Below are positions 11,563 through 15,801 of a stretch of DNA of 64,000 nucleotides, piece by piece. Within the stretch, counting starts at the first letter, position 1, and every line of letters starts with the position of its first letter. Where the stretch lies: the NCBI RefSeq assembly GCF_030013205.1, contig NZ_CP122648.1; one strand, written 5' to 3'. The notes beneath the pieces are model-generated. The model was not told the DNA's origin. It searched no databases and saw only the letters and a list, made by a program, of their open reading frames with translations. The stretch is from Escherichia coli (GTDB lineage: Bacteria; Pseudomonadota; Gammaproteobacteria; Enterobacterales; Enterobacteriaceae). A program made the position numbers and the translations under genes.

Positions 11563-11650
11563 CTTTTTTAAATTGCCCCTAGATGAATGCACGGGCGGAG
11601 AGGAAATTCCCCTTCGCCCGTGTCAGTATAATTACCCGTTTATAGGGCGA

Positions 11651-13567
11651 TTATTTTTTGTCTTTGACTTCTTCAAATTCAGCGTCGACAACATCGTCAT
11701 CTTTCGCGTTGTTTGCAGAAGCATCAGCACCGGCAGTCTGCTGCTGGGCATGTTGCTGCTGGGCGATTTCCATCAGTTTCTGGGAAACCTGTGCCAGTTC
11801 CTGCATTTTCGCTTCGATAGCGGCTTTGTCTTCACCTTTCAGAGCAGTTTCCAGTGCAGTCAGCGCAGACTCGATAGCAGTTTTGTCGTCAGCCGGCAGT
11901 TTGTCGCCTGCTTCTTCAACCTGCTTACGGGTGCTGTGCAGCAGATGGTCGCCCTGGTTGCGAGTCTGTACCAGCTCTTCAAACTTACGGTCAGCTTCGG
12001 CGTTAGCTTCTGCGTCGCGTACCATTTTCTGGATTTCATCTTCGTTCAGACCAGAAGAAGCCTTGATGGTGATCTTCTGCTCTTTACCGCTGTTTTTATC
12101 TTTCGCGGAAACGTGCAGGATACCGTCAGCATCGATATCGAAGGTAACTTCGATCTGCGGCATGCCGCGCGGTGCCGGGTTGATACCATCCAGGTTGAAC
12201 TGACCCAGAGATTTGTTATCAGCCGCACGTTTACGTTCACCCTGCAGCACGTGGATGGTTACCGCAGACTGGTTGTCTTCAGCGGTAGAGAACACCTGGC
12301 TGTGCTTGGTCGGGATAGTGGTGTTTTTCGCGATCAGCGTCGTCATCACACCGCCCATGGTTTCGATACCCAGAGACAGCGGGGTAACGTCCAGCAGCAG
12401 TACGTCTTTTACGTCACCAGTCAGAACACCACCCTGAACAGCAGCACCGATTGCTACAGCTTCGTCCGGGTTAACGTCTTTACGCGGCTCTTTACCAAAG
12501 AACTCAGCAACTTTCTTCTGAACCATTGGCATACGAGTCTGACCACCAACGAGGATAACGTCGTCGATATCAGATACGGACAGGCCAGCGTCCTGCAGTG
12601 CAACTTTCAGCGGCTCAATGGAACGGTTTACCAGATCTTCAACCAGGCTTTCCAGTTTCGCACGAGTCACTTTGATGTTCATGTGTTTCGGACCGGTCGC
12701 GTCTGCAGTGATGTACGGCAGGTTAACGTCGGTCTGCTGAGCGGAAGACAGCTCGATTTTCGCTTTTTCTGCCGCTTCTTTCAGGCGCTGCATTGCCAGC
12801 GGATCGTTGCGCAGGTCAATGCCCTGATCTTTCTTGAATTCTTCAACCAGGTAGTTGATCAGACGGCTGTCGAAGTCTTCACCACCCAGGTGGGTATCAC
12901 CGTTGGTTGCCAGAACTTCGAAGGTTTTTTCGCCGTCAACTTCGTCGATTTCGATAATAGAAATATCGAAAGTACCACCACCCAGGTCATAAACCGCGAT
13001 AGTACGGTTGCCAGTACCTTTGTCCAGACCGTAAGCCAGCGCAGCTGCGGTCGGTTCGTTGATGATACGTTTTACTTCCAGACCAGCGATACGGCCTGCG
13101 TCTTTGGTTGCCTGACGCTGAGCATCGTTAAAGTATGCCGGTACGGTGATAACAGCTTCAGTTACCGGTTCACCCAGGTAATCTTCAGCGGTTTTCTTCA
13201 TTTTTTTCAGCACTTCAGCAGAAATCTGCGGCGGTGCCATTTTCTGGCCTTTAACTTCGACCCATGCGTCGCCGTTATCAGCAGCAATAATTTTGAACGG
13301 CATGATGGAAACATCACGCTGTACTTCTTCGTCCTGGAAGCGGCGGCCAATCAGGCGTTTAATCGCAAACAGGGTGTTTTGCGGGTTCGTCACTGCCTGA
13401 CGTTTAGCCGGCTGACCAACCAGAGTTTCACCATCCTGGGTATAGGCAATGATAGAAGGCGTGGTGCGATCGCCTTCGGCGTTCTCCAGTACACGAGGAG
13501 TGGTGCCATCCATAATCGCTACACAAGAGTTGGTAGTACCCAGGTCGATACCAATTATTTTACCCAT
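11651..13567 (-). CDS. dnaK: chaperone DnaK (Hsp70)
   Basis: 638 aa [43 protein letters not shown]... Confidence 0.98.
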
Positions 13568-13615
13568 CTAAACGTCTCCACTATATATTCGGTCATCATG
13601 TGGTTGTGAGTCTGT

Positions 13616-13641
13616 AATAGGGGCGAAACGTCTGGTTTCAA
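13616..13641 (-). promoter_or_regulatory. sigma32 heat-shock promoter dnaK P2 (candidate)
   Basis: minus-strand TTGAAA ... CCCCTATT spaced appropriately upstream of dnaK. Confidence 0.55.
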
Positions 13642-13688
13642 CTGCCCAATTTCATTTTTTTGCAGACTCACTCACTGCGGTTGACTAC

Positions 13689-13717
13689 TAAATGGGGTCG
13701 TAACCCACGTCATCAAG
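13689..13717 (-). promoter_or_regulatory. sigma32 heat-shock promoter dnaK P1
   Basis: minus-strand CTTGATG-N13-CCCCATTTA matches sigma32 consensus (CTTGAAA / CCCCATnT). Confidence 0.7.
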
Positions 13718-13942
13718 GGGGAGATGCAAAAATTTTTTGTGCTTTTGCGCAGAAATTTCGCGATATGCCAGAACAAGACACGAAACTGACAGCAATTTTA
13801 TTCATATAAAGAATGAATGACAGCCAAGACATTCATAGAAAAATTGTAATAAAAAGAAAATATTACGTACCTGAATCTTCTCTTTATCAGCAGTAAACTA
13901 GTGGGTATTCATCCCCTACCTCTCCCCACTAAGAGAATCCTT

Positions 13943-14347
13943 ATGAAATCCGTTTTTACGCTTTCCGCCAGCCTGGCGATTAGCCTGCTGCTGTGCTGCA
14001 CGGCGCAGGCAAACAACCATAAAATCCTCGGCGTCATTGCGATGCCGCGTAACGAAACCAACGATCTGGCGCTGAAACTTCCTGTTTGTCGCATTGTTAA
14101 ACGTATTCAACTCACTGCCGACCATGGCGATTTACAGTTAAGCGGTGCATCGGTTTATTTCAAAGCCGCCCGTAGCGCCAGTCAGAGCCTGAATATTCCT
14201 TCAGAAATAAAAGAAGGGCAAACCACTGACTGGATCAACATTAACAGCGATAACGACAATAAACGCTGCGTCTCAAAAATCACCTTTTCCGGCCATACGG
14301 TGAACTCATCGGATATGGCCACGCTGAAAATTATCGGCGACGACTAA
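13943..14347 (+). CDS. yaaI: YaaI (DUF2541) secreted protein
   Basis: 134 aa from the ATG at 13943, signal peptide [23 protein letters not shown]. Confidence 0.85.
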
Positions 14348-14372
14348 CGCCAGAATATAGAAGCCACAAAAA

Positions 14373-15086
14373 ATGAATGTTAATTACCTGAATGATTCAG
14401 ATTTGGATTTTCTCCAGCATTGTAGTGAGGAACAATTGGCAAATTTCGCCCGGCTGCTCACTCATAATGAAAAAGGCAAAACTCGCCTCTCCAGCGTACT
14501 GATGCGCAACGAACTGTTTAAATCGATGGAAGGACATCCCGAGCAACACCGCCGAAACTGGCAGCTGATTGCCGGAGAATTACAACATTTTGGTGGCGAT
14601 AGTATCGCCAACAAATTGCGCGGACACGGTAAATTGTATCGGGCCATTTTGCTCGATGTTTCAAAACGATTGAAGCTGAAAGCCGACAAAGAGATGTCTA
14701 CGTTTGAAATTGAGCAACAGTTACTGGAACAATTTCTGCGTAATACCTGGAAGAAAATGGACGAGGAACATAAGCAGGAGTTTCTGCACGCGGTCGATGC
14801 CAGGGTGAATGAGCTGGAAGAGCTGCTGCCGCTGCTGATGAAAGACAAATTATTGGCAAAAGGCGTGTCGCATTTGCTTTCCAGCCAATTGACCCGCATT
14901 TTGCGCACCCACGCAGCAATGAGCGTACTTGGGCATGGTTTGCTGCGCGGCGCGGGGCTGGGAGGCCCTGTAGGCGCGGCACTAAATGGGGTTAAAGCGG
15001 TCAGCGGCAGCGCCTATCGAGTGACGATTCCAGCCGTACTGCAAATCGCCTGCCTGCGCCGGATGGTTAGTGCCACTCAGGTCTGA
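14373..15086 (+). CDS. yaaW: UPF0174 protein YaaW
   Basis: 237 aa MNVNYLNDSDLDFLQHCSEEQLANFARLL... Confidence 0.9.
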   Translation: MNVNYLNDSDLDFLQHCSEEQLANFARLLTHNEKGKTRLSSVLMRNELFKSMEGHPEQHRRNWQLIAGELQHFGGDSIANKLRGHGKLYRAILLDVSKRLKLKADKEMSTFEIEQQLLEQFLRNTWKKMDEEHKQEFLHAVDARVNELEELLPLLMKDKLLAKGVSHLLSSQLTRILRTHAAMSVLGHGLLRGAGLGGPVGAALNGVKAVSGSAYRVTIPAVLQIACLRRMVSATQV

Positions 15087-15234
15087 TACCGGAAACCGGG
15101 GAAAATTTTCATTTTCCCTTCAAAAGATCGTAGACACTGCCCCACTGGCTGATTATTATGCCGCGCCCTGAAAACACTACAGTTATTCAGGGAAATTATT
15201 TCACCATTCATTCGATGATGATTTTTGAGGAATT

Positions 15235-15801
15235 ATGGGCAACACTAAGTTGGCTAATCCGGCACCGCTGGGCCTGATGGGCTTCGGCATGACCACCATT
15301 CTGCTTAACCTGCACAACGTGGGTTATTTCGCTCTGGACGGTATTATTCTTGCCATGGGCATTTTCTACGGCGGCATCGCGCAAATTTTTGCTGGTCTGC
15401 TGGAGTACAAAAAAGGCAACACTTTCGGTTTAACCGCATTCACCTCTTACGGTTCTTTCTGGCTGACGCTGGTTGCGATTCTGCTGATGCCGAAACTGGG
15501 TCTGACCGATGCGCCAAATGCACAGTTCCTTGGTGTCTACCTGGGTCTGTGGGGCGTATTTACGCTGTTTATGTTCTTCGGCACGCTGAAAGGCGCACGC
15601 GTTCTGCAATTCGTTTTCTTTAGCCTGACCGTGCTGTTTGCCCTGCTGGCGATCGGTAACATTGTCGGTAATGCCGCGATCATCCACTTTGCCGGCTGGA
15701 TTGGTCTGATCTGCGGTGCCAGCGCAATCTATCTGGCGATGGGTGAAGTACTGAACGAGCAGTTTGGTCGCACCGTTCTGCCGATTGGTGAATCCCACTA
15801 A
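15235..15801 (+). CDS. satP: succinate-acetate/proton symporter SatP (YaaH)
   Basis: 188-aa membrane protein MGNTKLANPAPLGLMGFGMTTILLNLHNVGYF... Confidence 0.93.
   Translation: MGNTKLANPAPLGLMGFGMTTILLNLHNVGYFALDGIILAMGIFYGGIAQIFAGLLEYKKGNTFGLTAFTSYGSFWLTLVAILLMPKLGLTDAPNAQFLGVYLGLWGVFTLFMFFGTLKGARVLQFVFFSLTVLFALLAIGNIVGNAAIIHFAGWIGLICGASAIYLAMGEVLNEQFGRTVLPIGESH

Follow-up and report, generated by a model that had tools for sequence, protein, structure and literature searches.

Is the long open reading frame on the antisense strand of the Escherichia coli gene yaaW a protein-coding gene in its own right, or is it merely allowed by the sequence of the gene that contains it? The question arises here from a stretch of 64,000 nucleotides of an E. 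coli genome (contig NZ_CP122648.1), hereafter the window. A sequence-only reading of this DNA had pointed to a 148-aa minus-strand frame at 14462-14908, lying entirely inside yaaW, and had noted that an antisense gene, possibly htgA, was proposed at this locus. Both statements are borne out: the ORF listing gives the same coordinates with a GTG start, and the frame agrees with b0012 of K-12 in phase and in start codons. What that reading missed is that the window copy is truncated by a TGG>TGA change at 14462-14464. The features of the locus that are needed for the analysis are the following:

14373..15086, plus strand: coding sequence of yaaW, 237 aa from an ATG start, as given by the ORF listing
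14462..14908, minus strand: antisense ORF in the htgA/mbiA frame, 148 codons from the GTG at 14908, wholly inside yaaW
14897..14899, minus strand: ATG that is the currently annotated start of K-12 mbiA (yaaW nt 527)
14906..14914, minus strand: Shine-Dalgarno-like (SD-like) element GCGTGGGTG (GGGTG), 6 nt upstream of the ATG
14462..14464, minus strand: premature TGA stop (TGG, Trp, in K-12), produced by C>T at 14462 of the plus strand
14414..14461, minus strand: 16 codon positions past the stop of the window copy; the first 15 match the C-terminal residues of K-12 MbiA and are no longer translated
14414-14416, minus strand: site of the stop codon in K-12; the window has TGG here

The order of genes at the locus, dnaK-yaaI-yaaW-satP-mog-tal, is the same as in K-12, and the region corresponds to the start of the K-12 map in reversed orientation. 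YaaW of the window, which contains the Pfam domains DUF3944 and Ubiq_cyt_C_chap (formerly UPF0174), is identical to the K-12 protein (WP_001102367.1). The 1,101 bases around the ORF are 100% identical to those of E. coli strain K_EC180, and this locus was found in 5,424 of the 5,426 complete E. coli genomes with 95-100% identity.

Judged by its sequence, the ORF is the known and disputed htgA/htpY/mbiA (b0012) frame, and the locus has thus already been described. It shares with K-12 htgA/mbiA the locus, the strand, the wobble-on-wobble phase and both the GTG and the ATG starts; 4 of its 148 translated residues differ, apart from the replacement of Trp by a stop, and it ends 16 codons before the K-12 stop. 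Starting at the same GTG, this frame runs open for 164 codons in a K-12 derivative; from the ATG at 14899, which lies three codons downstream of the GTG at 14908, the open stretch is 161 codons. Counted from this ATG, the product has 145 aa in the window versus 161 aa in K-12, and the window copy therefore falls short of a full-length MbiA, taken as 161 aa from the ATG or as 171-174 aa where the K-12 stop is missing. It is yaaW nt 527 that was given as the start of K-12 htgA by Delaye et al. 2008 (PMC2268670); the historical 196-aa version starts further upstream, at a Leu codon. The wobble positions of yaaW and of the antisense frame coincide, an arrangement that is called “123/213” by Delaye (PMC2268670) and the “-2” frame by Mir & Schober (PMC4182739). 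In the protein collection searched, the 161-aa K-12 sequence is recorded as “uncharacterized protein MbiA”, with just 14 members in its cluster among about 15 billion proteins (gene-caller products), and the exact truncated product of the window is absent from this collection. RefSeq annotates no gene on the antisense strand of yaaW in any genome inspected.

One way to read these facts is that the frame is a genuine young overprinted gene of Escherichia/Shigella, which would have its own promoter within yaaW, start at ATG 14899 and modulate biofilm or stress physiology. The allele of the window would then be a C-terminally shortened and possibly still active variant; its stop costs the product just 10%. 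The data presented below make this reading unlikely, even if the phylogenetic distribution of the frame is in its favor. With one genome taken per species, a scan recovered 17 loci. E. coli and two divergent (cryptic-clade) Escherichia strains with 89.5% nucleotide identity to K-12 have the htgA frame open, and E. albertii has it open up to the stop site shared with the window (the last 16 codons are missing). All four sampled Escherichia lineages thus have an open frame, whereas every non-Escherichia relative has a closed one; the number of stops is 3-7 in Citrobacter, Salmonella diarizonae, Pseudescherichia and two further enterobacteria. The same distribution was described by Delaye et al. 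2008 (PMC2268670).

The SD-like element, which is correctly spaced before the ATG, also agrees with a young gene. Its duplex with the 3′ end of 16S rRNA has an energy of -3.9 kcal/mol, the median for gene starts of the window being -4.05. This element is, however, not an independent piece of evidence, because the yaaW codons for R-T-H-A fix its sequence. Other properties of the putative product and of its surroundings speak against a gene. HtgA has no family match in Pfam or NCBIfam, and AlphaFold2 predicted no secondary structure for it (pLDDT 29.2, pTM 0.17), which is weak evidence as the model was obtained from a single sequence. Serine makes up 22.3% of HtgA versus 16.6% in same-phase antisense translations of all window genes and 5.8% in the window proteins; for cysteine the respective values are 9.5%, 3.6% and 1.3%. 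The serine excess is therefore typical of this antisense phase, and the cysteine content is above even that of the phase. By a simple, and crude, scan of the minus strand at 14909-15300 no sigma-70-like site was found upstream of the frame.

Stop alleles and length of the frame

The substitution that truncates the window copy, C>T at 14462, converts yaaW codon 30 from ACC to ACT and is synonymous for YaaW. Its frequency was estimated with 41-mers centred on the variant and searched by megablast against 5,426 complete E. coli genomes. Such counts cover only carriers of the variant, because a central mismatch abolishes the megablast seed. The stop allele of the window was registered in 247 of the 5,426 genomes (4.6%), including IAI39 and IMT16316, always on one and the same local haplotype. 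An independent stop, of the CFT073/Nissle type, is present in 154 genomes of the same set (2.8%), Nissle 1917 among them. In this case A>T at yaaW nt 210 changes YaaW (L70F) and turns the htgA codon TGT into TGA, so that approximately one third of the ORF is lost. This nonsense mutation of CFT073 was already pointed out by Delaye (PMC2268670). Altogether about 7% of complete E. coli genomes bear one of the two premature stops. E. albertii has the same C>T at the site equivalent to 14462 of the window, and its stop must have arisen independently because the change sits on a different background. The K-12 stop of htgA is itself polymorphic within E. coli, with TGA in some strains and TGG in others. 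The frame therefore comprises 164 or 174 codons, and the same polymorphism explains why MbiA occurs in databases in versions of 161, 171 and 174 aa.

Mutations that close the frame constitute 1.5% of the yaaW-synonymous mutational opportunity, which gives 1.47 expected stop gains (about 1.5 among 101 changes); two independent ones were observed, both at the same site. A third htgA stop, that of CFT073, arises via the YaaW-changing L70F and remains outside this synonymous count. Nonsense alleles of the htgA frame are thus not depleted and occur at the neutral expectation, and through one of them 154 genomes have lost a third of the ORF, which counts against a genuine gene.

The length of the frame does not help such a gene either. 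Among the 52 putative genes of the 64-kb window, antisense ORFs of 148 aa or longer are embedded 14 times, and three of these ORFs (206, 181 and 148 aa) are in the same phase as the htgA frame. When YaaW was recoded synonymously 20,000 times with the codon usage of the window, a same-phase ORF reached 148 aa or more with P=0.21 and 164 aa or more with P=0.11. For an antisense stop to arise in the htgA phase, a Tyr, His or Gln codon must follow and the preceding wobble base must be T (or C for Tyr). The overlapped stretch of YaaW contains only about 10-11 positions at risk, because the residues preceding Tyr, His and Gln in this protein limit a wobble T. Most of these codons follow Glu, Lys, Gln or Trp, whose codons never end in T, which gives the frame a probability of 0.1-0.2 of remaining open. 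Thus, the length of the ORF in the htgA phase is not beyond chance.

The window contains its own control for long incidental antisense frames. Opposite dnaK (11651-13567, minus strand) there is an antisense ORF at 11573-13609 of the plus strand, which encodes 678 aa and exceeds dnaK in length. Its antisense phase is the fully in-register one; it matches the Pfam family PF10712 “NAD-GH” with E=1.6e-249 and is the classic Hsp70 antisense ORF. Like htgA, it is a long frame embedded in a conserved gene, and its conservation mirrors that of the sense gene. It differs from htgA in its phase, in its much greater length and in being conserved across bacteria, the htgA frame being open in Escherichia alone.

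Tests for selection on the two overlapping frames

As a check for an overprinted gene, the sequence-only reading had suggested a search for excess synonymous constraint in yaaW. Compared with the neighbouring genes, no such excess is seen: the synonymous-codon divergence of yaaW between K-12 and other Escherichia (0.28-0.38) is the highest of the six genes, the values for dnaK, yaaI, satP, mog and tal being 0.05-0.31. Within yaaW the divergence is uneven, and the stretch where it is lower is

14415-14909: codons 15-179 of yaaW, overlapped by the htgA frame and compared with the remaining 72 codons of the gene

In two independent Escherichia contrasts the divergence of these codons was 69/308 = 0.22 versus 47/134 = 0.35 elsewhere (p=0.007). 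This modest dip over the overlap echoes the observation of Delaye 2008 (PMC2268670) and, taken alone, would support a young gene. As a signature of htgA it was nevertheless not accepted. Taxa that lack the ORF deviate in the same direction (0.375 for the overlapped part versus 0.434 for the rest of yaaW), the difference between the two groups of taxa is not significant (p=0.19), and the dip is not concentrated in changes that alter HtgA.

A direct estimate was obtained with a conditional two-frame test, which was applied to 19 Escherichia yaaW sequences with kappa = 3.09 derived from 4-fold degenerate sites. The dSN/dSS ratio of OLGenie is a test of equivalent spirit. Of 101 yaaW-synonymous site-alleles, 27 change the HtgA peptide and 74 leave it as it is, against an expected fraction of 0.238 for those that change it. 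The corresponding omega of HtgA, given synonymy in yaaW, is 1.17 (95% CI 0.72-1.83, p=0.49), a value which is also compatible with weak selection (omega 0.7-1) or with a very young gene that is not yet constrained. Same-phase controls in dnaK, yaaI, satP, mog and tal gave omega 0.78-1.23 (pooled 0.89), and the same region in taxa where the frame is closed gave 0.62-1.28. With its lower 95% bound at 0.72, HtgA thus cannot be told from same-phase non-genes, which weighs against the gene. The reverse estimate is quite different: yaaW is under clear purifying selection, with omega 0.26 (p=2e-4) among htgA-synonymous changes.

The naive dN/dS of htgA is 0.13-0.24 and could be taken for evidence of selection. 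It was rejected as such since the conditional test, together with the controls in the same phase, shows it to result from the constraint on yaaW: conditional omega is 1.17 versus 0.26 in the reverse direction, and the low naive ratio is therefore inherited from yaaW. Mir & Schober (PMC4182739) cautioned that, for exactly this frame, selection acting on the sense frame can produce conservation as an artefact. Our data show that the HtgA peptide looks conserved in Escherichia because YaaW is under purifying selection. So far as the compared sequences can tell, there is no evolutionary support for a selected HtgA protein. The earlier suggestion of a possible htgA overprinted gene hence stands as far as the identity with htgA is concerned, while its functional part finds no support, given the neutral omega of 1.17 and the segregating nonsense alleles.

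Alternative readings of the antisense frame

Based on these comparisons we consider it probable (roughly 0.75) that the ORF is an incidental open frame, allowed by the residues of YaaW and its codon choice, and not a selected protein-coding gene. The amino-acid sequence of YaaW together with the codons used for it would keep the antisense frame open, and the conservation of the HtgA peptide would reflect selection on YaaW alone. Any transcription or translation of this strand would then yield a product without detectable sequence constraint, and lineages that truncate the frame (that of the window, CFT073/Nissle and E. albertii) persist. Seen in this way, the window presents nothing unusual, but a normal yaaW with an incidental, already described and truncated antisense frame. 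The consequence for the field is larger, as htgA/yaaW is a textbook first example of bacterial gene birth by overprinting and is still present as mbiA in the K-12 GenBank record. The outcome of the conditional test and the approximately 7% of genomes carrying a stop argue against using this pair as proof that long antisense ORFs are genes.

Several arguments for a young gene are experimental. For htgA, a Northern-blot transcript, a labelled protein and promoter mapping were claimed (Missiakas 1993, according to PMC2268670), and a promoter inside htgA/yaaW was reported to be active in vitro (PMC2731890). On the other side, Delaye et al. (PMC2268670) themselves described htgA as controversial: its heat-shock role was withdrawn, as sigma-32 does not induce it, the annotated start has been changed and a nonsense mutation is present in one copy. 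The gene was also taken out of an annotation over conflicting data (PMC3454372). Later papers nevertheless name htgA/yaaW among the few characterised overlapping pairs, and the UniProt name of MbiA is “Modifier of biofilm”. Fellner et al. 2014, the source of the name mbiA, reportedly found a biofilm phenotype in strand-specific mutants, which is a further argument for a young gene. The experimentally proposed antisense genes of EHEC, nog1/citC, laoB, ano, asa and pop, offer a comparison. They are likewise embedded in annotated genes and taxonomically restricted, and overprinting was proposed for them. The claims for these particular ORFs are based on RNA-seq, Ribo-seq and competitive growth, whereas for htgA the evolutionary test is negative here.

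A narrower form of the same idea is that MbiA is truly translated but very young, its sequence being still without measurable constraint. The recurrent C-terminal truncations in the lineage of the window, in E. albertii and in CFT073/Nissle would in this case represent either natural hypomorphs or adaptive losses, by which biofilm behaviour is adjusted between E. coli lineages. We find this combination improbable; if it were true, the locus would allow the birth and death of an overprinted gene to be studied in a natural allelic series.

The least probable of the readings, to which we give little credit, is a non-coding cis-antisense RNA that would modulate expression of yaaW (or of yaaI/dnaK), with the ORF being incidental to it. 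Such RNA would reconcile the reported phenotypes with the absence of constraint at the peptide level, and could account for the mild region-wide synonymous dip that is not specific to htgA-nonsynonymous changes. However, pervasive antisense transcription in E. coli is mostly seen as noise, and since the synonymous divergence of yaaW tops that of its neighbours, a strong RNA-level constraint on this gene is not apparent. No Rfam match was found on either strand of 13600-15400 at E<=1, and the scan for promoter-like sites upstream on the minus strand was negative, even though an intragenic promoter is active in vitro (PMC2731890) and older Northern data exist (PMC2268670). The one terminator-like element seen on the antisense strand is a weak hairpin at 14450-14438. 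The open frame allowed by YaaW remains the preferred reading.

Integrity and naming of yaaW

Several observations concern the mother gene and its surroundings. At the 5′ end of yaaW a promoter-like site is located on the minus strand at 14383-14354 (TTAACA, 18-nt spacer, TATATT; 10 of 12 matches), and it points into the antisense of yaaI. In NZ_CP180600.1 (strain PS2Canimalfeces12) yaaW is interrupted by IS1X2, and the two fragments are annotated as “DUF3944 domain-containing protein” and “ubiquinol-cytochrome C chaperone family protein”. This split suggests that yaaW is dispensable in at least this strain.

In every genome inspected RefSeq names yaaW “msyB”, with the product “acidic protein MsyB”. 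YaaW is a basic protein with pI 9.37, contrary to this label. The source of the name is the NCBIfam model NF007593, which matches YaaW over 237 of 237 positions (E=6.5e-157). The real MsyB, a protein of 124 aa, matches another NCBIfam model, NF008544 (8e-75). NF007593 thus looks like a mislabelled model that spreads a wrong gene name onto yaaW.
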